Shown here piece by piece: positions 1,313-12,329 of a stretch of 12,329 bases of DNA. A program made the translations under genes and the position numbers. The stretch covers positions 1 to 12,329 of the forward strand of contig CBDDUX010000104.1 of the NCBI GenBank assembly GCA_965234725.1, in the 5' to 3' direction. Position 1 is the stretch's first letter; each line of letters starts with the position of its first letter. This stretch comes from Thermoplasmatota archaeon (GTDB lineage: Archaea; Thermoplasmatota; Penumbrarchaeia; Penumbrarchaeales; Penumbrarchaeaceae). The notes below the pieces were generated by a model. That model saw only the letters and a list, made by a program, of their open reading frames with translations, was not told where the DNA came from and made no database searches.

Positions 1313-1374
1313 ACCTTCCATGGCAGGTTTTCAAGATAAACCTTTTGGAAAGAGCCTTCCAGGGAAGGTTTTCA
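1313..1374. repeat. Two imperfect 20-bp direct repeats, each quasi-palindromic; candidate operator sites
   Basis: CCTTCCATGGCAGGTTTTCA (1314-1333) and CCTTCCAGGGAAGGTTTTCA (1355-1374) are 18/20 identical and 41 bp apart. Each approximates the palindrome ACCTTCCATGGAAGGT. Confidence 0.65.
1335..1346 (-). promoter_or_regulatory. Putative BRE/TATA promoter of the HTH_10 regulator
   Basis: The minus strand reads AAAAGG-TTTATC, 24 nt before the ATG at 1310. This fits an archaeal promoter with a very short or no leader. Confidence 0.45.
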
Positions 1375-4300
1375 GACCTCGGGTATGAGTTCATCCTCAA
1401 GAGGAACTTCTTCCTCTTCTATCTCGGCCTCGATCACCTCAGCGACCAACGTGGGATGTTCCGGTTCCTCGGGACCTGCCGTGATCTCCATCTCGAGGAC
1501 ACCCTCGTCCTCCGGGGGTGTGATCTCCATCTCCGGGACATCCTCATCTGTTGGAGGAATCTCCCCGGATTCGACCTTGACCCCTTCCGGACCATCTGGA
1601 ATCCCGGTACCTTCCTCGTCAGGAGGCGGTCCTGATGGAAGACCGAACTTCCAAAAATAAAGACCTCCCCCGACAATGAGGAGAACGATCAGTAATATTA
1701 TGATAAATGGGAGATAATACGTGAATTCCCTGGCGCTGGAAGTCCCTTCGATCACGATCTCTTTGGATGCGGTATTATCCGATAGGTCCTGTTCCTGATC
1801 ATCTCCAACTGGCTCGACAGTAACGAACAATGTTCTGTTGCCTTTTCCTTTTGGAAGGAGGAGATCAATGGTGACGGTCTCTTCGGGATCCTTGGAGGGA
1901 TCAAGATCAAGATCGAAGTTCATGGATATCAATTGGTCTCCTGTTGAGGTGTCAATGTTCATCCTGACAATGAAACCCTTTGAAAGAGGGGCATTCCCTT
2001 CATTCTCAACGGATACCCTGAAGGAGGCCGGACCATCCTCCTTGAAGGATCCTTCCAATGGAGTAACCGATCTGACCGATAGATCAGGATAGAAGGAGAA
2101 GCTCCTTTCGAGTTCATTATCCTCCTCATCTGTCTCCAATATCTCATTGAAGGGGTCCACCTTGAAGGTTATGGTATGCTCACCTATCTCAGATGGGGTC
2201 CACATGATACCGCTTATTGTTGCTTCCTCATCCGGTCTGAGATCTGTCTCGATCGTCCTTGAACCGATGATAGAGCTCCCCTCGTAGAAAGTGCACAAAA
2301 CATCTGAAATGGAGATCCTTCCCAGGTTCTTGACCCCTGCCATTAGCTCGATCTCCTCCCCCAGGACAGGATCGGTGGGTTCTGAACCAATCACACCAAC
2401 CACTTCAAGGTCCGGATAGGCCCTTTCGATGCTGATCTCCCAATCAACGATATTTCCCGATCCGGATGTGGAAATGAAGATATATCCTGTCAGGGAACCT
2501 GTCTCGTTGGGGAGTGTTATATCAACATAGGGAGAGGCTCCATCACCCGGGAAAAGTGATCCATCCCCGTCCCTGATCACCGTATCATCCTCAAGGGGTG
2601 GAGAAACCGAGACCTGGTAATCGAATGGAACGTTCCCTCTATTGAAGATATAGAGTTCAAAGCTCGTTTCGGAGTCATCACCAGGCCCCAATGTGACATT
2701 TGCAGATGAGATCATCTGGACAAGGACCTGTTCGTCTCCCACTACCGTAAGTTCATAGACCAGTTTCCGTGAAACCGTGGTATCGCCTGAAATGGATCCT
2801 GTCACTTCGATGATGATGATCCTTCCCGGTTCCTCACCATCCGGTACGGAAAATGAAACCTTGACGGACCTGGAGTTACCAGGTTCCAGAGTGAAGGTGC
2901 TTGGAGTGAGGAGGATACCCGCTCCAGTAAGGGTCGAATTACCCTTCTGTTCCTTTGTCAACTGGACATCTCCCCGTATGTTCCCGTCGTTCACAACAGT
3001 GATGTCCAGAGTGATGTCCTCTCTCGGGACGACATCGAATCCGGTTGAACCCTCGGGGGAGAGAAAGATGGAGAGTGTGGGAATATCGGTGAGATCTATT
3101 GGCAGGTCCAGGGTGATATCCTCGGAATATGCAATTGATGAGTTTTCACCCCACATCTGGTCCTTGGAGGCTCTTACCGAGATATCATCTCCATCAAGGT
3201 ATTCGATGAAGTTCATGTCGAATCCATACATACCGTCGGAACCCGTGGTGATCGGACCCAGTGACTCACCGGTCCTTTTGACGGTAAGGGTCACTCTTAC
3301 GTCAGCTTCCGGAGATCCATCGCTGCCATTCACCTGACCCTGGATGTAAAGAGAACCCACGGGTTGCCTGGATTTGACGTTCGTAAAGACCGTGATATTG
3401 TTGTTGGCCCCGGATATCTCCTGTACGCCCTGAGGGGGTATAACCCATGCTTCTATCTTGAAGGAGGCCTCATCCTCCTCCTCCGGAACACCTGTTGGTG
3501 TCCACGGCACCGAGATGTTCACATCCATTCCCTTTGCAACAGAGCCAAGGGGTGTATCCTCAGGACCTCCTGTTGGGGAGTCCTCGTTGACATTAACCCG
3601 AACGGTTCCCCCCGACACGGATTTCTGACCGATGTTCGAAACGGTGATGATAATGGATGAGGGGTCCTCTTCCACAAGTCTCCTGTCATTCGAGACCCTT
3701 TTTCCGTCCCCTCGAAGGAATATGACATCTGTTATGGTCAGATCTGGAAAGGCTGGGAGGACATAGAATGAGTTCTCACCCTCATTGTTGGTCTCATCGG
3801 TCTCTGATATGTTCCCATCAGGATCGATCACAACTGATATTTCATGGTCGCCATCCCCTCCTGGTATCCAGACAACGGAAGCCTCCGCGGTATCTGAAAG
3901 GGTGATCCTGTCATGACCAATAATGATAGGGTCACCTCCGGGACCATCAATGTCAATGAACCTTACAACGACATCCGAAACAGAGGTTCTCTTGGTATTC
4001 TGAACGACACAGTTCACGGTAACGGGAGACCCGTCAACAGGTTCTGTATTGTCGAGGTATATATTGGTGCCTGGAGGGTCCTTTATCTTGAGGTCCACTA
4101 CCTTCTGGGTGTACATGTGTCCGTTGATGTATATATCACAGAAACCGTCAGTGTTCAGATCCCCTATCAAACCGTTACCCGTGGATAATTGACCCGTCAC
4201 TGTGAGGTTCCAGTAGGATGTTCCGTCTGACAATATGCCATATATGATCCCATTGGAGAAGAATACCCCATCCGGGATCGAATCCTCGTTCAGGTCGCAA

Positions 4301-5601
4301 GCAAGGGGAGTGGCATACACAGGAGATGTCCCTAGGTTCGTCCCCTCTCTTGTCCAGAGAACGTCATGATCCCAATCCGACCCATCCATGAATATCCTGC
4401 GACAGGTCATGATGTTCCGAGAAGATATCGTGAAGGTCCTGGATTGCAGCAGTATCTCATCCTTCAGGTCTCCATTGAGATCGGCAAGTGCAACGGATCC
4501 CTCGAACGTCCCGGGTATATCCTCTATGGAAAGTACTGGCACGAGGGAATATGTGTAGACCACAACTCTCCCATACCCGTTGCTTGCAGGATAGGAGACT
4601 ATTATATCAGAGGTCCCATCACCGTTCACATCGGAAACAGAGGGCATCGGGATCGGGCCAAGATGGGAATACCCGATGATGGTTGGCGTTAGGTCGTCAG
4701 TGACATTGTTCAGATGAAGTCCTTCATAATTTACAACGGTCGTCCTCATGGTGGATTTTCCAGGGAGCAGAGAATTCACAACAATTCTCTTCAATGGTCC
4801 AGCCCCGGGATAGATCGCGGGAGTGGAAAGTGTTTCCCCCATCGGACCTATATCCAGATACCAGAACATGGTTCCGTTGTTACCGTAATAAGAGAACAGT
4901 CGATTCCCTGCACCCACGATCACATCCTCCACACCATCACCCGAGATATCATAGACCATTGGGGAAGATGTAATTACGGAACCTATAATGCCCGATGTCG
5001 AGAGCCATACACGATCATCGAAGAATGCCTGGTTCGAATATGAATACCCAGAAGTGGTGAGTGTTATATTGGGTTCGAACAGGACCATCTGATGTGTATT
5101 GCCATCCGATATGGCCGCAAGGACCTCAACCTTACCATCGTCGTCTGTATCCATTAAGGCAAGGGAACCAAGCAATCGATTGGTGATCCTTCCTTCTATC
5201 CTTCTGACATCGATCGACCAAGCGATCTTTCCATTGTTCCCGTCCCTCAAAATGACATGAGTGGTATTGCTATCTCCCACCAACACTATCGGTCTGGATT
5301 CAAGACCGGAGAACTTGACGTTGGGTGTCATATCCGATGCGACACCCCCTGGAGAGGTGGTATTCTCCTGATCGGACCATCTCTCAACAGGATCCTGCAG
5401 ACCCCTGTCAGATGATATCCCTTCCTGGGTGTTGAAAGCATCCCTTCCGACCATTGGCCAGTAGATCCCACTCAGGTCCAGTGTTCCCTCTGCATCGATG
5501 ACTCCCTCAAAGCCGTTGGAATACCACATTCCCGGAACTATCAGGGACAATGTCAGCATCAGAAGAAACAGGCGGATCGTTGTACGGCCCTCCTTTTCCA
5601 T
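1372..5601 (-). CDS. Large secreted, C-terminally membrane-anchored surface protein: FG-GAP/VCBS-like beta-propeller, multiple CARDB/Ig-like domains, TM and acidic tail
   Basis: Start reassigned to ATG 5601 (MEKEGRTTIRLFLLMLTLSLIVPGMW, signal-peptide-like, TATA just upstream), giving 1409 aa. WPMVGRD propeller-type start and six DxDxDG-like Ca-binding loops (DTDDDG, DISGDG, DVNGDG, DLNGDL, DLNEDS, DLNTDG). CARDB signatures (PDLxI/V...V.N.G...DPxxxIxETDExxN) occur about four times. There is a carboxypeptidase-regulatory-like segment (IQGQVNGSDGSPEADVRVTL...TTGSDGMY), a TM YYLPFIIILLIVLLIVGGGLYFW and an E/P-rich tail. Confidence 0.9.
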   Translation of the reverse strand: MEKEGRTTIRLFLLMLTLSLIVPGMWYSNGFEGVIDAEGTLDLSGIYWPMVGRDAFNTQEGISSDRGLQDPVERWSDQENTTSPGGVASDMTPNVKFSGLESRPIVLVGDSNTTHVILRDGNNGKIAWSIDVRRIEGRITNRLLGSLALMDTDDDGKVEVLAAISDGNTHQMVLFEPNITLTTSGYSYSNQAFFDDRVWLSTSGIIGSVITSSPMVYDISGDGVEDVIVGAGNRLFSYYGNNGTMFWYLDIGPMGETLSTPAIYPGAGPLKRIVVNSLLPGKSTMRTTVVNYEGLHLNNVTDDLTPTIIGYSHLGPIPMPSVSDVNGDGTSDIIVSYPASNGYGRVVVYTYSLVPVLSIEDIPGTFEGSVALADLNGDLKDEILLQSRTFTISSRNIMTCRRIFMDGSDWDHDVLWTREGTNLGTSPVYATPLACDLNEDSIPDGVFFSNGIIYGILSDGTSYWNLTVTGQLSTGNGLIGDLNTDGFCDIYINGHMYTQKVVDLKIKDPPGTNIYLDNTEPVDGSPVTVNCVVQNTKRTSVSDVVVRFIDIDGPGGDPIIIGHDRITLSDTAEASVVWIPGGDGDHEISVVIDPDGNISETDETNNEGENSFYVLPAFPDLTITDVIFLRGDGKRVSNDRRLVEEDPSSIIITVSNIGQKSVSGGTVRVNVNEDSPTGGPEDTPLGSVAKGMDVNISVPWTPTGVPEEEDEASFKIEAWVIPPQGVQEISGANNNITVFTNVKSRQPVGSLYIQGQVNGSDGSPEADVRVTLTVKRTGESLGPITTGSDGMYGFDMNFIEYLDGDDISVRASKDQMWGENSSIAYSEDITLDLPIDLTDIPTLSIFLSPEGSTGFDVVPREDITLDITVVNDGNIRGDVQLTKEQKGNSTLTGAGILLTPSTFTLEPGNSRSVKVSFSVPDGEEPGRIIIIEVTGSISGDTTVSRKLVYELTVVGDEQVLVQMISSANVTLGPGDDSETSFELYIFNRGNVPFDYQVSVSPPLEDDTVIRDGDGSLFPGDGASPYVDITLPNETGSLTGYIFISTSGSGNIVDWEISIERAYPDLEVVGVIGSEPTDPVLGEEIELMAGVKNLGRISISDVLCTFYEGSSIIGSRTIETDLRPDEEATISGIMWTPSEIGEHTITFKVDPFNEILETDEEDNELERSFSFYPDLSVRSVTPLEGSFKEDGPASFRVSVENEGNAPLSKGFIVRMNIDTSTGDQLISMNFDLDLDPSKDPEETVTIDLLLPKGKGNRTLFVTVEPVGDDQEQDLSDNTASKEIVIEGTSSAREFTYYLPFIIILLIVLLIVGGGLYFWKFGLPSGPPPDEEGTGIPDGPEGVKVESGEIPPTDEDVPEMEITPPEDEGVLEMEITAGPEEPEHPTLVAEVIEAEIEEEEVPLEDELIPEV
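1481..1533. repeat. 14-bp direct repeat encoding a duplicated EMEIT peptide in the cytoplasmic tail
   Basis: GTGATCTCCATCTC at 1481-1494 and 1520-1533, 39 nt apart and in frame. Confidence 0.7.
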
Positions 5602-5624
5602 GGCATCTTCACGTTTTAGATGGG

Positions 5625-5638
5625 ATATAACCTTTATT
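5625..5638 (-). promoter_or_regulatory. Putative BRE/TATA promoter of the beta-propeller/CARDB gene
   Basis: The minus strand reads AATAAAGG-TTATAT, 23 nt before ATG 5601. Confidence 0.55.
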
Positions 5639-5657
5639 ATCCAATGATAGATAATAA
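5634..5657. promoter_or_regulatory. Inverted repeat TTATTATC-N8-GATAATAA; candidate transcription-factor site
   Basis: Perfect 8-bp arms at 5634-5641 and 5650-5657, overlapping the BRE of the minus-strand promoter in the divergent intergenic region. Confidence 0.4.
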
Positions 5658-5724
5658 TGAGATGCATAAGTTGTTGAAAACCACTCCATTGGTGGATACT
5701 GGTCCTTTTTTCGCCGTGTCACAT

Positions 5725-5797: not shown

Positions 5798-6526
5798 ATG
5801 ACCGATGATGATCTCAGACTGGCCAAGGAAAGATTGATGAAGCTTTGGGATGCCTACGAATCGCAAGAACTGGAGCTTCAGGGAGCAATGAAGAAGGTTA
5901 ACAGCCTTGAGTCCAGGAATGCAGACAAGGATAGAGTCCTTGAGACTTTGAGGGAACTGGTCGAGGCCAAGGATAAGGAAATCGGGAAATTGGAGATAGA
6001 CAGGTCATCCTTGGAGAGGGAATCCTCTGACTACACAAACAGGCTCGAGGAGACATCCGCATCACTTAACCAGGAGAGGACCAGATACAAGAAGCTCTTC
6101 ATAATCACACAGGAACTTGAGAGAGAGGTGGACAGATTATCAAGGGAGCTCGAGGAAAGGGACAGATGGTTCAAGGACAATATGTCATTCTTCGAGGAGT
6201 TCCCCTCCAGGGTAGGAAAGAGACTTGGTATGGTCTCCAAACCAAGGAAGTCCCTTATGGATGAACTCGGGGAGAGGCCTGCACTTCCAAAGGAAGCAGG
6301 CGGTGAATCTACCAAGGCAACATTCCAGCGTGTTGACCCTGCAGAAGAGGCCATGAAGGTCCTGCAGGACATACCTGGCCTTGATGAAGTTAAGATGAGA
6401 GTGCTTATCGAGGCGGGATATGATTCCGCAGAGAAGTTGAAGACCGCCTCACCATTCGAACTTGTAAAACTGGAAGGGATAACCCCCACAGTAGCAAGGA
6501 AGATCACAGACCATCTGAAGGCCTGA
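5798..6526 (+). CDS. Coiled-coil protein with C-terminal tandem helix-hairpin-helix (HhH) domain
   Basis: 242 aa. Residues about 5-125 show an E/K/R/L heptad pattern. The C-terminal LQDIPGLDEVKMRVLIEAGYDSAEKLKTASPFELVKLEGITPTVARKI resembles the HHH_5/RadA-N-type double HhH. RBS and TATA are present. Confidence 0.85.
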   Translation: MTDDDLRLAKERLMKLWDAYESQELELQGAMKKVNSLESRNADKDRVLETLRELVEAKDKEIGKLEIDRSSLERESSDYTNRLEETSASLNQERTRYKKLFIITQELEREVDRLSRELEERDRWFKDNMSFFEEFPSRVGKRLGMVSKPRKSLMDELGERPALPKEAGGESTKATFQRVDPAEEAMKVLQDIPGLDEVKMRVLIEAGYDSAEKLKTASPFELVKLEGITPTVARKITDHLKA

Positions 6527-6532
6527 TGTAAC

Positions 6533-7207
6533 TCACTTCTTCTTCTCCCTTCCTTCCTTGAAGAGGGATGGAAGGTGCAGAAGGTATGAGCCATCCTTCT
6601 GTATAATGATGGGATTATCATCAAGTAGCTTCTCGACGTCTATCTCGTATACTCCGGTCTCAATGATGTTTATCACATCTACATCGGTCTTCTTTCTAAG
6701 GGGACTTTGAGGGACCTTCTTAAATGGTAAAGACCTCTTCTTTACAGGTCTCTTCTTCTTCTTGATGGTCTTTCTTTCCTTTGTCTCCTCATCAGTTTCC
6801 TTCTTACTGTCCAATTCCGAGATAAGGTCCTTTGCCGAAGGTTTCCTGACACCTTCCACTATCTCGATCCCTGTCTTGGAGGTCCCCTCGTCCAGTTCGA
6901 TCTCATCTTCCGAGCCCGGCCTGTACCTCACCCAATCATCCCCCAGGGACCTGTCGATCTCAAGTGAGGAGCCATCTATCTCGGTCATCCCCCTCTCTTT
7001 CAGGATCTTCAGAAGTTCAGGGTCAGCCTTCTTGATCATCTTGTTCCTGACCCTGTCTGCCTTTCTGTTGAGGGTCTCCCTTGCCTCCTCTGACATGGGT
7101 TGAGATGTGAACATGAACTTCTTTCCACTGCACTTCGAACATCCCTTCAGGATCTCATCAGACCCTCTGGGTATGACATGTCCGCAGTTCAGGCATTGAT
7201 GTGGCAA
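6533..7207 (-). CDS. oapC: OapC/ArvC-family Zn-ribbon protein (DUF2072-type)
   Basis: Starts MPHQCLNCG...ILKGCSKCSGKKF (two CxxC pairs) and ends with the family-type INIIETGVYEIDVEKLL...KDGSYLLHLPS. TTG start preceded by AAGGAGG (6-nt spacer). Third gene after the GTPase and DUF2073 genes. Confidence 0.9.
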   Translation of the reverse strand: MPHQCLNCGHVIPRGSDEILKGCSKCSGKKFMFTSQPMSEEARETLNRKADRVRNKMIKKADPELLKILKERGMTEIDGSSLEIDRSLGDDWVRYRPGSEDEIELDEGTSKTGIEIVEGVRKPSAKDLISELDSKKETDEETKERKTIKKKKRPVKKRSLPFKKVPQSPLRKKTDVDVINIIETGVYEIDVEKLLDDNPIIIQKDGSYLLHLPSLFKEGREKKK

Positions 7208-7269: not shown

Positions 7270-7782
7270 TCATTCCTCATTATCCGATGATCCGGATGAT
7301 CCCTCACTTTCTTCGATTCCTTCTTCGGTATCCTCATTGAGGATCCTGTCCTTTCCGATCTCTTCACCTTCCTCGTCCAGAGCAGTATCCCTGGTCAGTA
7401 TTATTGCCTCTATGGTCCTACCATCCTTCTTGATGGTCTTCAGGAGATGTGCAGGTCCCACCACCATCATCCTGGGTGGAGGGGACCTTCCAAGTATCCT
7501 CATGAGGAACGATCTCTTGGCGAGGTTCCCGGTGAAACCTGGTGTTTCGACACCGATAAAGGAATCGTGGTCGATCTCGGTCATTGTCACCTTTATCAGT
7601 TCCAGTTCCTCTGAGGACGTCAAACCCTTTTCAAGGACAAGGACCTTGCCGGTCTTCACCTGATCGATAATGAACCTGATCTTACCCTTTCCCATCTCCT
7701 CCAGCCTTTCAGTGGAGATCAGATCGATGGAGATGCTACCCCTCTCGGAACCTTCCTTCAACACCCTTTTCTTTAACTCCAT
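7270..7782 (-). CDS. oapB: OapB/ArvB-family protein (DUF2073-type) with acidic C-terminal extension
   Basis: IDLISTERLEEM...KIRFIIDQVKTGKVLVLEKGLTSSEELELIKVTMTEIDHDSFIGVE...MMVVGPA is the DUF2073 pattern. The ATG is 4 nt after the oapA stop, and an AGGTGA RBS overlaps that stop (translational coupling). Confidence 0.9.
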   Translation of the reverse strand: MELKKRVLKEGSERGSISIDLISTERLEEMGKGKIRFIIDQVKTGKVLVLEKGLTSSEELELIKVTMTEIDHDSFIGVETPGFTGNLAKRSFLMRILGRSPPPRMMVVGPAHLLKTIKKDGRTIEAIILTRDTALDEEGEEIGKDRILNEDTEEGIEESEGSSGSSDNEE

Positions 7783-7786
7783 CGTT

Positions 7787-8413
7787 TCACCTGAAGTACT
7801 TTATCATTGCCTTGTAAAGATTATCCATTCCGTAACCGGCTAGTGCAGATACAGGTATCGTTGGGTGCTGTGGGAATGCATCCCTGATCGTTGCAGGAGA
7901 TGCGTTCTCCAGGTCCATCTTGTTGGCAACAATTATCGTTGGAAGTTCCCTTGCTTCCAGATTACCGAGTAGGGTCACGTTAACCTGATTGAAAGGATCC
8001 TCTGCTGAATCCATCACCAGCAGTACACCATCTACCTTGTCCAGCCATTTGATCGCCTCGATCACACCTTCCGTTGCTTCTTTGGCTCTTCCACGGGCCT
8101 TCTCCTCATCCATCCCGAACTCCTCCACAAAATTGTGGAAGTCGATCTTTGTGGCGATCCCTGGTGTGTCGACAATATTGAAGCTAATCTTGGACCCTGC
8201 TGCCTTTATGACTATTTCCTTGGCCTCTTTTGCCCTGCGGGTCTCATGGGGGATCTCGGAGGTCTTTCCAAGAGGTTTTCCCGTCCAATCCCGGCTGATC
8301 CTATTTGCCAGAGTGGTCTTCCCAGCATTGGGTGGTCCATATATCCCTATTGAGGGTTGTCTTTTCCTGAAGAGTCTGGACAACCCCTTCAAGATCGAAT
8401 TAAAAAAACCCAT
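7787..8413 (-). CDS. oapA: OapA/ArvA Era-like small GTPase
   Basis: G1 GPPNAGKT, G2 IPHETR, G3 DTPG, G4 NKMD, G5 SAL. Family-typical TTLANRIxRDWTG and AKEATEGVIEAIKWL. GGAGGT RBS at 8423-8428. Confidence 0.93.
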   Translation of the reverse strand: MGFFNSILKGLSRLFRKRQPSIGIYGPPNAGKTTLANRISRDWTGKPLGKTSEIPHETRRAKEAKEIVIKAAGSKISFNIVDTPGIATKIDFHNFVEEFGMDEEKARGRAKEATEGVIEAIKWLDKVDGVLLVMDSAEDPFNQVNVTLLGNLEARELPTIIVANKMDLENASPATIRDAFPQHPTIPVSALAGYGMDNLYKAMIKYFR

Positions 8414-8479: not shown

Positions 8480-8521
8480 AAAAAATAATAAAAATAACAG
8501 GGGCAGGATCGCTCCTGCCCC
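8480..8521 (-). terminator. Stem-loop plus T-rich tract terminator after the 1168-aa surface protein gene
   Basis: Perfect 9-bp stem GGGGCAGGA / TCCTGCCCC (8500-8508, 8513-8521) with a 4-nt loop. On the minus strand it is followed by TGTTATTTTTATTATTTTTT and lies 11 nt after the stop at 8533. Confidence 0.8.
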
Positions 8522-8532
8522 GATCTCACTGA

Positions 8533-11500
8533 TCACTGCTGGCCTTCATACATAGGATTCTGCTGCTCTGCAACAGGTTCCTGGTATAATGGATTCTCGG
8601 CTTCGGGGTATAATGGAGCTGGCTCCATTGGCTGGGGCTGAGCATCCATGGGTTGGGCAGGCGGTAGTGCTTCGCTCTGAATACCTCCCTCGGCACCTGG
8701 CAGGGTTGGTACGGATGTATCAACCATTGGCATGGTTGGAATATCCAACTGAGGTGTTGCCAGCATTGCCTCTTCTTCTGCCTCTTCCCTCTTGTCGGAT
8801 TCCTCTTCACGATGTATCCTGAGGTATCCGATCACAACGATAAGGGCTGCAATTATTATAGCAGCTATCACAACAATAATGAACACCCAAAATGCGAAAG
8901 GCTCATCCAATGCCGGGGCAGGTTTATCGCCTAGAATTGCCGATGGTTTGCTTTCAGAGTCCCATGGATTGGTTGCATCCCTTTTGCCATTGTAGGGACC
9001 CACACCGTCATCTCCAAGGTATTCCTGGATATTGGTATACCCGTCGGAGTCAGAGTCCTCATTCCTATCCGATGCATCGGAAAGGTCAAGAAGATTTTCC
9101 CATTCCCAGAGATCGACCATTCCATCCAGGTCAGTATCATTCGTTTTGCTTGGTATGTATTTCACAATTTTTACAGATACTGTAGCAATAGCCCTGTCAA
9201 GATCCTTATGCCCCGAATCACCCACATAAAGTGTGATCGTATGCCATCCCAGGGTCTCAAACCTGAAGTTATTAAATATCATATCAGTTGAAAGGGTAGT
9301 ATTCCCCTCCTTCCATTCGAATTTCAGGTTTCCTGCATCGACATCCACATCATATGAGCCTGAACCATCGAAGTTAATAAGCTCTGTGATGTTGAATTGA
9401 GCAAGGTTCTTTGGGGACCTTATCTGAGCAACAGGCTCCGTATTGACAAGGATCTGGAACATCTGAGATGCTGACCAGGGTCCACCTTCCCTTCCGGTAT
9501 ATGCTCCATTGCCTGCCCTGTCCTTGGCTATGAACTGCATGAAGTTCATCTCACCCTCAATAAAATTCTCGTAAAGGAAATGGACCCATATGAGATTGTT
9601 CTCATCCATCTTGTCATACCATTTCCTCGGAAGCTCTTCCCAGCCACCCTGAGGTTGTATTCCCGTTGACCAGATATAATTGCCTGATTCATCCAGTTCA
9701 TGGGAGATCCTGTAATAGATACCGGAATCGGTATTGATACCCGCGGTATCATCTCTAAGATAGAGTGATACCTCTTTCTCATTTATTATATCAAGATTAT
9801 GCCAGGCTCCAGATGTGGGGAAGAACTGTTCGAATGTCACCGGTGTGACATCGATCTTGATATTATATGGATCGGAGACAGCGTAGCCGTTCCCGGCCCA
9901 GTCCTTGACCCTGAACTTGATGTAATTCTCTGTCCCTTCAATGAACCTGGGCTGAACTGTCAACTCCACATCATCGTCAGCAGCCCTTGTGACCTCTTCG
10001 TCAAAGAGACCCACCGAGATCCAGTCTCCGAATTCATCCAATCCATCCGTTGAGATCGAATACTCCGCGGTGGATTTTCTTATTCCGGACATCTGACCGA
10101 TAATGGTCCCACCATCAATGCAAGTGATGGTTAGCTTGGGTGTCAGCGTCTTCAACCAGTTTGCTGTATTGTAAGAGAACTGAGTGAAGATCGGGTCTGC
10201 TTTGTCAATGAGGATCGTCTGTACTGCCGCCTCACCGATGTGTCCGACATTGTCAACTGCCCAGACGTAAAGTTTGAAGTCACCCACAGTTGTGAAGTTC
10301 CACACCCAGGAAGTGATCTTGGGATCCACGGATACAGCCGATTCATTGTTCTGATCAGGAGTACTGGAGATCCTGTATTCCCTGATACCTGATCCCGTAT
10401 CAGCAACAGAACCCCAGCTGACATAGAGGAAATCATCATTATCCACTTCCCTCTGTTTGTCCTTGAAGGAATCAGCTCTTATGACCAGTGCCGACGGAGC
10501 CTGAGGGGTGGAATCATCCACCTTAAGACCGATGGACGGTGGTTCAGCGAGAATACTTTTCGCCGGTACGCCCATGACCCTGACCTCAAACTCCTTCCTT
10601 AGTGCCCTGGTAGGCATGTTGACAGCTATGTGGAACTCCCTTCCCGAAACGTTCCTATCCTTGTATTCGGTAAGTTCGTCATCGATGACTGCCATGTAGA
10701 AGGAATCGTTCTGTGGATAATAAGTTGCATTGGGGGTGGTCATATTATAAAGGAGTGTTGCGCCAGTGAAGGTTATCGATTCATTGTCCCTGGTGAAACT
10801 TTCCTGTTTGAGCTCTCTTCCATCGTCACCAAGGATCATGAACTCACCATCTATCTTCAACTCATTGTCAAGATAGAACAGGTCTTCCTGAACCTTTGAA
10901 TAGGGTAAGGAAACGCCTCCACGGGCCCATAACGTGACGGGGATCATTCCGGTCCACGGGAATGCGAACTGGAATTTGACATATACCACCATATCCCAGG
11001 GTGTGAAAAGACCTGTGGTATCCGTTTCTGTCATTGACCTGATTATGTTCATCTCTATTGTTCCGTTGCCGGGACCATTGTCCCCTCCTCCCATCTCCCA
11101 ACTGGCTTTTCCTCCCTGGATCTTATACTGTGCATAGATCCCCAGGGAAGGTGGGCCGAAATACAACCTGATATCGTTAAGGTCGGCAGATCCAAGGTCA
11201 GGATGTGTCGTTGTAACATTGAATGAGAACTTATACTCCTGGTAATCAGCATAGCAGATGGGTATGGTCTCATTGTTCTCATTGACATAGTCGGTCTGGG
11301 CATTCTCCACTTCCACATGGCCTAAAACTGGTTCGGAATAGGAGAACTCTATTGCCATATTGTCTTGTAGTGTCTGGTCGTAGAATGTCTTGTAGATGGA
11401 TCCTACCGTCCCTGTCTCATCCTCGATCCCAACATTATGGTAATATCCGTTTACATAGGAACCGGTTCCGGCGGATTTGTACTGCATCTTTATCACACCG

Positions 11501-12039
11501 GTCTCATAGAGTATGACCTGGACCTGCTGACCATAGGATGAGAAGGTATTCCATTCAATGGCCAGGTATTCGGTGTTACCTGTGGAACCGAACATGTAAT
11601 AGGCGTTCCCATATCCATACCCCCAGCATACTGCTATCATCGGGTTGGGGGCTGCGGACTGTGGCATACCAGAACTGTAACCGATGGTATATGTGAAAGA
11701 ATCCAGACACACATATCCTCGGGCATGTACATAGGCTCTAGTGTATTCGTTCTCGTAATAAGGGAAATCCCACGGCAGATCTATCTGGCCATAGTCTTGG
11801 GATCCTGAACTGGAGAATCCCATACTGGTCCCAGAACTTTTCACATCTATCCAGCTATAAGTGGTCCTTGGCTGGTCACCGATACTGGTCATGTAATAGT
11901 AACCTCTCTCATCCTTTTCTGAAAGTGCTGCTGTTGCCTCATCCGATACGAGACCGGTAAGGACAAAGGCTGAAAGGATCATAGACATCACTAATACAAC
12001 GGCCATAAGGACCTTTTTCATATCCCCACTTTTATCCAT
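8533..12039 (-). CDS. Large secreted, C-terminally membrane-anchored surface protein (nidogen-like N-terminus, FN3/Ig-like, PKD, TSP3-like Ca-binding repeats, TM, P/Q/E-rich tail)
   Basis: 1168 aa. Signal peptide MKKVLMAVVLVMSMILSAFVL...ATA; YSWID...LPWDFPYYENEY...GYV nidogen-like motif; FN3-like PQAPSAL...VSWGSVADTGSGIREY...VWAVDNVG; Ig-like ends VKDWAGNG and AKDRAGNG; PKD PVAQI...FDGSGSYDVD...FEW...HTITLYV; DTDLDGMVDLWE and DSDSDGYTNIQEY repeats; TM FWVFIIVVIAAIIIAALIVVIGYL. A GAGGGGTG RBS-like sequence lies upstream, with an alternative start at 12021. Confidence 0.9.
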   Translation of the reverse strand: MDKSGDMKKVLMAVVLVMSMILSAFVLTGLVSDEATAALSEKDERGYYYMTSIGDQPRTTYSWIDVKSSGTSMGFSSSGSQDYGQIDLPWDFPYYENEYTRAYVHARGYVCLDSFTYTIGYSSGMPQSAAPNPMIAVCWGYGYGNAYYMFGSTGNTEYLAIEWNTFSSYGQQVQVILYETGVIKMQYKSAGTGSYVNGYYHNVGIEDETGTVGSIYKTFYDQTLQDNMAIEFSYSEPVLGHVEVENAQTDYVNENNETIPICYADYQEYKFSFNVTTTHPDLGSADLNDIRLYFGPPSLGIYAQYKIQGGKASWEMGGGDNGPGNGTIEMNIIRSMTETDTTGLFTPWDMVVYVKFQFAFPWTGMIPVTLWARGGVSLPYSKVQEDLFYLDNELKIDGEFMILGDDGRELKQESFTRDNESITFTGATLLYNMTTPNATYYPQNDSFYMAVIDDELTEYKDRNVSGREFHIAVNMPTRALRKEFEVRVMGVPAKSILAEPPSIGLKVDDSTPQAPSALVIRADSFKDKQREVDNDDFLYVSWGSVADTGSGIREYRISSTPDQNNESAVSVDPKITSWVWNFTTVGDFKLYVWAVDNVGHIGEAAVQTILIDKADPIFTQFSYNTANWLKTLTPKLTITCIDGGTIIGQMSGIRKSTAEYSISTDGLDEFGDWISVGLFDEEVTRAADDDVELTVQPRFIEGTENYIKFRVKDWAGNGYAVSDPYNIKIDVTPVTFEQFFPTSGAWHNLDIINEKEVSLYLRDDTAGINTDSGIYYRISHELDESGNYIWSTGIQPQGGWEELPRKWYDKMDENNLIWVHFLYENFIEGEMNFMQFIAKDRAGNGAYTGREGGPWSASQMFQILVNTEPVAQIRSPKNLAQFNITELINFDGSGSYDVDVDAGNLKFEWKEGNTTLSTDMIFNNFRFETLGWHTITLYVGDSGHKDLDRAIATVSVKIVKYIPSKTNDTDLDGMVDLWEWENLLDLSDASDRNEDSDSDGYTNIQEYLGDDGVGPYNGKRDATNPWDSESKPSAILGDKPAPALDEPFAFWVFIIVVIAAIIIAALIVVIGYLRIHREEESDKREEAEEEAMLATPQLDIPTMPMVDTSVPTLPGAEGGIQSEALPPAQPMDAQPQPMEPAPLYPEAENPLYQEPVAEQQNPMYEGQQ

Positions 12040-12069: not shown

Positions 12070-12329
12070 TTACTGAGTATCGCTCCCTCCCTCTAAGGGT
12101 TGTCCCATGGGTGCAGCCTGCATAGGCTGGGCTTCCATGGGTTGAGCGGCCATTGGTTGTGCTTCCATCGGTTGAGCTGAGGGCTCAGCAGAAGGAAGAG
12201 CAGTAGACATATCATGAACAGAAGCAGAAGGAAGTGCACTCGCCTCGCCCTTGGATGAAGCAAGAAGATTGTTTAAACGAGCACGACCACCAGAAGCAAG
12301 AGCGTTCTCCATTAGCTGCTTCTCATCTT
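12070..12329 (-). CDS. C-terminal low-complexity tail of an upstream gene (5'-truncated), probably another surface protein related to the 1168-aa one
   Basis: The frame is open to the window edge (DEKQL before MENAL). ALPS and AQPM(E/A)AQP repeats resemble the neighbour's ALPPAQPMDAQPQPM. The stop is only 30 nt before the next start, suggesting co-transcription. Confidence 0.7.
   Translation of the reverse strand, partial: DEKQLMENALASGGRARLNNLLASSKGEASALPSASVHDMSTALPSAEPSAQPMEAQPMAAQPMEAQPMQAAPMGQPLEGGSDTQ
12110..12184 (-). repeat. Degenerate 15-bp coding tandem repeat (MEAQP-type pentapeptide, about 5 copies)
   Basis: Plus-strand units GGTGCAGCCTGCATA, GGCTGGGCTTCCATG, GGTTGAGCGGCCATT, GGTTGTGCTTCCATC, GGTTGAGCTGAGGGC encode SAQPMEAQPMAAQPMEAQPMQAAP. 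Confidence 0.8.

Follow-up and report, generated by a model that had tools for sequence, protein, structure and literature searches.

A doubled NPxY motif in the cytoplasmic tail of an archaeal surface protein encoded next to a putative receptor partner

The stretch of DNA analysed here (the window: 12,329 nucleotides of contig CBDDUX010000104.1, from an uncultured sediment archaeon of the Thermoplasmatota, in the class called Ca. Penumbrarchaeia in the accessible part of PMC12220078) carries on its minus strand a gene, at 8533..12039, for a type I membrane surface protein of 1168 amino acids (aa). The cytoplasmic tail of this focal protein ends in two NPxY motifs that are 8 residues apart, NPLY (8584..8595) and NPMY (8548..8559). 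Comparison with orthologs showed that the terminal motif is under purifying selection where present, yet dispensable. The focal protein is not an integrin beta; its doubled motif resembles an NP[LM]Y-x8-NP[LM]Y module that recurs in unrelated archaeal and bacterial proteins and seems to be undescribed. Our preferred explanation, which we hold tentatively and at slightly less than even confidence, is that the motif serves for docking to a non-canonical reader, that it arose by convergence or capture, and that the protein bearing it is one of the two chains of an archaeal receptor pair.

The motif in the host genome and across orthologs

The tail was confirmed to be as a first-pass annotation of the window had read it, and the 11-bp repeat (8583-8593 and 8607-8617) that NPLY has in common with a nearby APLY (8608..8619, minus strand) is present in the DNA. 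The genome holding the window (G000; assembly completeness 97.65%; 2638 open reading frames (ORFs) called) contained NPxY-x8-NPxY in the focal protein alone, and this was also the only NPxY pair in a tail following a transmembrane (TM) helix. In a post-hoc test on shuffles of the distal 40 residues, two or more NPxY motifs arose in 1.1e-4 of the shuffled sequences, and a pair with x8 spacing in 0 of 200,000. A PDB sequence search with the focal tail returned one irrelevant match (E 2), ESM Atlas searches with this tail and with the tail of the G032 protein described below returned no match, and a loose DNA pattern for NPxY before a stop codon was uninformative.

Among the 199 post-TM tails of the host genome, NPxY was found 4 times versus 1.0 expected (p = 0.017). 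The proteome-wide enrichment of NPxY in such tails, for which the first-pass annotation had proposed a check, disappeared once the focal protein was removed; NPxY was then left in 2 of the tails, one of them resting on a probably false TM call. The tail of a He_PIG/FN3 surface protein from the same genome (L117:1-1977(+), G000:C92) ends exactly in NPIY. Other motifs were strongly enriched in the 199 tails (LPP, 46 versus 8.5 expected; [AQE]LPP[AP], 8 versus 0.4; DLYG, 10 versus 0.1). These enrichments are inflated by paralogs; the three motifs are better candidates than NPxY for a general sorting code in this genome.

The focal gene has orthologs with 40-92% identity across the family. We collected 57 ortholog sequences with a conserved EEEAM block, which gave 30 distinct tails; orthologs cut before the tail or without a matching EEEAM block (e.g., L016) were left out. 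Seven tails had NPxY-x8-NPxY, seven [DSQ]PxY-x8-NPxY, one xPxY-x8-NPxY, one NPxY-x8-NSxY, and one a single NPxY, while the remaining 13 had no motif. Counted differently, a degenerate pair with the same 12-residue period was present in 9 of the 30 tails and a terminal NPxY in 16. Fifteen tails contain PxY at least twice, one of them in three units, and the 12-residue step was found in each of the fifteen. When the 17 motif-bearing tails were aligned on the terminal motif, the upstream motif had P in 17, Y in 16, and N in 8 of them, and most of the spacer columns contained 3-7 residue types each. The expectation that the terminal pair would be conserved while its flanks drift thus held in part: the fixed spacing is kept and the flanks drift, which is the pattern expected of a docking motif, but the pair is not universal in the family. 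The 8-residue step to APLY occurs only in the three closest tails (L001, L002, and P0001), and APLY is therefore a recent copy; the earlier suspicion that local duplication of APLY had given rise to NPLY is refuted by this distribution.

Even where the ectodomains have diverged by 1.79 and 1.96 substitutions per site, the full pair was retained; the rough chance of six sites surviving at the average rate of the ectodomain is 1e-4. In the 12 orthologs read as DNA, the terminal motif used all four Pro codons, both Asn codons, and both Tyr codons. Retention over these distances together with synonymous codon changes indicates purifying selection on the motif where it is present. In a quick tree of the orthologs with a midpoint root, neither the outgroup nor five early rows had the motif; all 10 members of the clade of the host's own genus and 6 of 9 members of another clade had it, and one clade of five rows had lost it. 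Its absence from the outgroup and the early-branching rows suggests that the motif arose inside the family, and the 13 tails without it call for several losses.

The same data bear on the possibility that the tail harbors a neutral local tandem repeat in low-complexity Gln/Pro/Glu sequence that is NPxY-like by chance. A copy number ranging from 0 to 3, repeated losses, and a spacer composed like its flanks would all fit such a repeat, and NP[MF]Y at a 12-residue period arises in NUMOD3-type repeats too. We nevertheless consider this explanation improbable, given the retention at about 1.8-2.0 substitutions per site with its rough chance of 1e-4, the synonymous variation, the fixed period, and the likeness of the tail to a wider module beyond the N, P, and Y residues.

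A recurrent module in archaeal and bacterial proteins

We defined the module as NP[LM][YF][EQ] occurring twice with a 12-residue period, and the focal tail contains just this arrangement. A DNA pattern for the pair had nine matches in 37 genomes of the class (three in controls): six orthologs, two out of frame, and one in genome G032. The G032 protein (L116:8737-12099(-)) is an unrelated beta-helix/PKD/TSP3 membrane protein that carries the pair directly behind its TM helix. With a stricter pattern, 401 Thermoplasmatota genomes gave 13 matches (two in controls), comprising the six orthologs, the G032 protein, a protein from genome G088, and five spurious matches (three with a stop in the spacer, one antisense, and one at the very start of an open frame). 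The G088 protein is a third unrelated type I protein and ends in the pair; a homolog of it has kept the pair with a changed spacer. The eight matches in real frames therefore belong to three unrelated protein families, and every one of them is located in a post-TM tail.

The tail of the G032 protein is a mosaic of short motifs, and a search with it against 1.84 billion representatives returned 76 matches. The x8 pair was present in 12 of the 75 non-self matches, one of which (P0044) has seven tandem units. Organism names on two of ten matches checked were Sphingobacteriales and Planctomycetales; the label bacterial is thus partly inferred for this set. A looser pattern identified 27 module copies in 15 proteins that are non-orthologous to the focal protein, with the consensus NP[LM][YF][EQ]..G..G.NP[LM][YF][EQ]. 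We built a hidden Markov model (HMM) from these 27 copies. The focal protein ranked first in its own proteome (E 0.023), its tail scoring 22.4 bits. Of 5000 shuffles made of each kind, 3047 full shuffles and 4891 shuffles with N, P, and Y fixed were scored; none of the former and six of the latter reached the score of the focal tail. The focal tail resembles the module beyond its N, P, and Y residues.

The motif-mosaic proteins (L116 in G032; P0026-P0100) have low-complexity regions along which short peptides recur, and some of these peptides match parts of tyrosine-kinase, FG-GAP, eCIS-core, or cold-shock families; possibly the interest of these proteins exceeds that of the focal finding. A search with the seven-copy array of P0044 found only P0044 itself. 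In 301 genomes of a phylum centred on a Verrucomicrobia record, a search allowing spacings of 5-13 residues gave seven matches: one x8 pair in a real frame (in an RHS-repeat protein), one in-frame x11 pair inside a DNA repeat, and five off-frame. Among the at least 118 viral loci listed, most long-ORF matches look like NUMOD3 repeats (confirmed by Pfam in the one case tested). The first-pass annotation had taken the 8-residue spacing as a pointer to integrins; since the same spacing is found in the prokaryotic module and in NUMOD3-type repeats, it is not integrin-specific. In the open-access literature, as far as its texts were accessible, we found no description of an archaeal NPxY tail, of a propeller/NPxY gene pair, or of the mosaic module.

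The mosaic proteins also raise the possibility of a location-independent tag, i.e., a modification, cleavage, self-assembly, or mimicry element that is merely tolerated in the focal tail. The secreted appearance of these proteins, the occurrence of the module next to fragments with matches to a tyrosine-kinase loop and to FG-GAP, eCIS-core, and cold-shock families, and the tandem arrays of up to seven units in P0044 are in keeping with a tag of this kind. It is harder to reconcile with the three of three Thermoplasmatota families that have the module behind a TM helix, and the distinctive mosaic motifs were not found when searched for in six frames of the host genome. We regard a tag as unlikely, while granting it some weight.

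The putative receptor pair, its genomic neighborhood, and a proposed docking model

The focal protein is predicted to have a hydrophobic helix at its N-terminus and a single C-terminal TM helix (8824..8892) that runs on as a cytoplasmic helix to about aa 1091. All coordinates in this paragraph are on the minus strand. Its head, at about aa 40-232 (11344..11922), is an all-beta, NIDO-like domain and not a vWA domain, as judged from Pfam matches in homologs and a structure model (predicted local distance difference test (pLDDT) 81, predicted template modelling score 0.85). Pfam NIDO matched 2 of 17 homologous heads (best E 3.7e-6) and did not match the head encoded in the window. Comparison of the head model with the PDB gave no clear match (Foldseek, none at E<=0.001; best Z 5.5), which does not by itself make it a new fold. 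The head is followed by a string of Ig-like/PKD beta-sandwich legs (about aa 233-960; 9160..11343) and by membrane-proximal, Asp-rich repeats of the DxDxDG type (9010..9147), which are putatively Ca-binding and have weak TSP3_bac and EF-hand matches in orthologs. The ectodomain is all beta in the structure model, and a fold search with the whole of it returned only generic Ig strings and no vWA. The best-conserved part of the tail is a near-invariant juxtamembrane block (GY...EEAEEEAMLATPQ...P; 8725..8829), in which many columns are identical in 29-30 of the 30 tails; LATPQ is present in 29. Beyond it the tail is disordered by prediction (pLDDT under 50), and the motif lies 76-110 residues from the membrane. 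In genome G004, the copy of the focal gene (L061:3560-7065) is interrupted near aa 151 by a frameshift that may be an assembly error.

Thirty base pairs from the start of the focal gene, the window contains the cytoplasmic tail of a partner gene (12070..12329, minus strand) that is cut by the contig end and was identified through its relatives; the head of this partner was not found in the host genome. In relatives, the partner is a type I receptor of 1430-1520 aa with an N-terminal FG-GAP propeller. FG-GAP was matched in all four partners tested (E 8e-20 to 8e-48), with seven repeats matched in the copy of a sister family. The legs of the two proteins are paralogous (focal aa 340-1162 versus partner aa 657-1477; 27%, E 9e-60). 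The gap between the genes is 30-56 bp in 14 of the 15 loci in which both were found, and the remaining locus has a frameshifted focal gene. The two genes are adjacent in the sister family too, the pair being conserved across two families, and they are probably co-transcribed. The genomic context is more suggestive than the window alone had shown. FG-GAP was found in at least 14 of 249 large anchored proteins of the host genome, counted with a strict pattern that would miss some partners. Three other ORFs have a similar head, none of them beside an FG-GAP anchored protein. The idea that the pair had been duplicated as a unit was rejected: those extra paralogs that were checked are arranged differently. 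A second membrane protein with FG-GAP plus CARDB is encoded in the window at 1372-5667(-); in most members of the family it is found in synteny with the locus.

We searched the host genome with the Pfam models PID, IRS, FERM_C, PH, bPH_1/2/3/5/6, and actin. Nothing scored above the cut-off, and two weak fragments fell below it, in a search that a diverged fold would escape; the PTB/PH/FERM-like adaptor anticipated by the first-pass annotation was not recognisable. This result also bears on whether the two chains form a working integrin analogue, with the FG-GAP and NIDO chains as an alpha/beta-like heterodimer whose NPxY pair binds a diverged PTB/PH-fold adaptor and thereby a cytoskeletal link. 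The alpha-like propeller gene directly upstream in two families, the paralogous legs, the conserved juxtamembrane helices, and the selection on the motif pair all point in that direction. The missing adaptor and actin matches point away from it, as do the lack of vWA and EGF domains, the absence of the integrin signatures GFFKR and HDR (found in 0 of 12 partner ORFs, one of which lacks the tail, and in 0 of 30 focal tails, respectively), the commonness of FG-GAP among large anchored proteins, and the failure to find extra partner paralogs in the same pairing. We rate this possibility as rather unlikely.

Downstream of the focal gene are, on the same strand, the genes for the small GTPase OapA/ArvA (7787..8413), OapB/ArvB (7270..7782), and OapC/ArvC (6533..7207), assigned by Pfam and named after the accessible part of PMC10927574, according to which ArvA drives vesicle formation in Haloferax. 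The NPxY tail could, in principle, be a cargo-sorting signal for ArvABC-dependent formation of extracellular vesicles: in 19 of 21 loci of the family, the focal gene immediately precedes arvA of this vesiculation operon (the other two loci being too short to tell). We find this quite improbable, because the linkage is restricted to the family. Outside of it the arrangement was seen in 0 of 9 loci (seven with at least 1.4 kb upstream), and the sister family keeps its receptor pair away from arvABC. In addition, a hairpin with a T run resembling an intrinsic terminator (8500..8521, minus strand) separates the focal gene from arvA, and motif-bearing and motif-free orthologs do not differ in this linkage.

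A coiled-coil plus HhH protein (5798-6526, plus strand; Pfam) is convergent on arvC and conserved in the family, and an HTH_10 (bat-type) regulator was recognized by Pfam at 651-1310 on the minus strand. In genome G028, a bacterial-type DnaA ATPase domain (L293:3-689(+); Pfam E 6e-58) is encoded 0.8 kb upstream of oapA/arvA; homologs of this domain occur in 32 of the 37 class genomes, including the host genome (C3:101752-103068(+)), several of them in frames of 1000-1500 aa.

In our preferred explanation, a docking motif on one receptor chain, the focal gene would be the second of a closely spaced pair encoding single-pass receptors with paralogous Ig legs; the first chain would bear the FG-GAP propeller head and the second, focal chain the NIDO-like head, as seen in relatives. 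The juxtamembrane helix and the LATPQ block, conserved as described, would provide a core with a universal function. On a long, disordered Pro/Gln/Glu tether, the terminal [ND]P[LM]Y unit, present in 0-3 copies at a 12-residue period, would act as a short linear docking site for a cytoplasmic peptide-binding protein. By analogy with the general chemistry of NPxY, an Asx-Pro turn may present the hydrophobic residue and Tyr to this reader, and a second copy of the motif could add avidity, tuning receptor location or turnover. The tail would then work in the manner of an integrin-beta or Sib tail, but as an instance of the recurrent prokaryotic module, gained by capture or convergence and not by descent from an integrin-beta gene, and its reader would be a protein that Pfam does not recognise as PTB, PH, or FERM.

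Several observations speak against this docking model. The Asn of NPxY is critical for PTB binding; in 9 of the 17 motif-bearing tails, however, the first N is replaced by D, Q, S, or P, and 13 of the 30 tails are without the motif altogether. The other tails of the host genome show no enrichment of NPxY, and no binding partner was identified. The Gly pattern of the module's spacer, present in 16 and 20 of the 27 copies at its two positions, is absent from the spacer encoded in the window, and only 3 of the 17 motif-bearing ortholog tails have Gly before the second motif. Finally, in none of the 15 mosaic proteins is the module preceded by a TM-like stretch beyond residue 40, and a signal-like N-terminus is present in 10; the module is therefore probably extracytoplasmic in these proteins, which argues against a general role in binding cytoplasmic adaptors.

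Comparison with integrins and other known systems

Integrin beta tails contain two NPxY motifs at 8-residue spacing, and the focal protein is likewise a type I membrane protein with two NPxY motifs in its cytoplasmic tail (in 7 of the 30 ortholog tails, with a degenerate pair in 9). The resemblance to the alpha/beta heterodimer extends to the gene next door, which in relatives encodes an FG-GAP propeller chain with Ig legs and a TM helix. The ectodomains differ: as the first-pass annotation had cautioned, that of the focal protein is unlike integrin beta, with a NIDO-like head and Ig legs in place of the vWA, PSI, and EGF domains, and Pfam matched neither a vWA (beta-I) head with MIDAS nor PSI nor a Cys-rich EGF stalk in it. 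The membrane-proximal likeness to integrins that had been proposed was not borne out either; IHREE is present in 8 of the 30 tails, and HDR and GFFKR, described for integrin chains in the accessible parts of the integrin literature cited here, are absent from the focal tails and from the partners. Further differences from integrins are the long distance of the motifs from the membrane, their loss in 13 tails, and the lack of Pfam matches to talin/kindlin-type domains or actin in the host genome.

These comparisons leave very little room for a homologous integrin-beta or Sib tail, whether acquired from a eukaryote or ancestral to the eukaryotic one. The focal protein does match Pfam Integrin_b_cyt (PF08725), and a cadherin-like TM protein on a 1.47-Mb viral contig (L206:1492-3048(-)) ends in an NPxY-x8-NPxY tail of the same style. 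However, the Pfam match, at 17.7 bits, is below the cut-off of 23.4 and, while it aligns both motifs, is confined to positions 25-44 of the 44 in the model, the motif half; the ectodomain is unrelated, and the motif, far from the membrane, appears inside the family in the midpoint-rooted tree. Moreover, the tandem copies of the mosaic protein P0044 score above the PF08725 cut-off (32.4 bits), and the model is therefore not specific; PF08725 matches in prokaryotes are not evidence of integrins. Integrin homology of the whole protein is largely refuted, while the ancestry of the 20-residue module alone is not a question that sequence can settle.

Docking through short linear motifs in receptor tails is commonly regarded as eukaryotic. 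A selected NPxY pair in an archaeal tail, and a module present in three unrelated archaeal tails and in bacterial proteins, offer a concrete peptide bait for a prokaryotic reader and bear on the origin of the integrin-beta/Sib tail. The conserved pair of propeller and NPxY genes is a direct candidate for a two-chain adhesion receptor in archaea. The most far-reaching interpretation would be a non-Asgard archaeal, integrin-like adhesion receptor assembled from other parts, in which an FG-GAP/NIDO heterodimer docks a cytoplasmic adaptor through its NPxY-x8-NPxY tail; on this view, the motif would represent an ancient peptide code of prokaryotes, older than the integrin-beta/Sib tail and maybe its source. 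We think this rather doubtful.

NUMOD3 repeats of homing endonucleases (PF07460) also contain NP[MF]Y at a 12-residue period; these are basic, Gly/Lys-rich, and soluble, whereas the focal tail is acidic and part of a membrane protein, and Pfam found no PF07460 match in the focal protein. The propeller of the partner, with seven matched repeats in one relative, resembles prokaryotic FG-GAP/VCBS propellers. It differs from them in being membrane-anchored and paired with an NPxY-tailed chain; the bacterial propeller proteins in the accessible part of PMC3192720 are without a TM helix. Archaeal integrin-alpha-like propellers are mentioned in the accessible text of a preprint (bioRxiv 10.1101/2020.04.29.069435), whose supplementary material includes an archaeal propeller tree of possible relevance to the partner. 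Between them, the accessible parts of PMC12686525, PMC9197732, PMC9258230, PMC3192720, and this preprint cover amoebal NPxY tails, prokaryotic FG-GAP propellers, and Asgard integrin-like families. SibA of Dictyostelium, which has a vWA domain and binds talin A according to the accessible parts of PMC12686525 and PMC9197732, differs from the focal protein in this domain and in its partner, a talin-like protein not having been detected in the host genome by Pfam. Like the focal protein, however, SibA and other amoebal receptors that are not integrins pair an ectodomain unlike that of integrins with a tail containing two NPxY motifs, and these receptors would be the best functional analogy for the archaeal protein.

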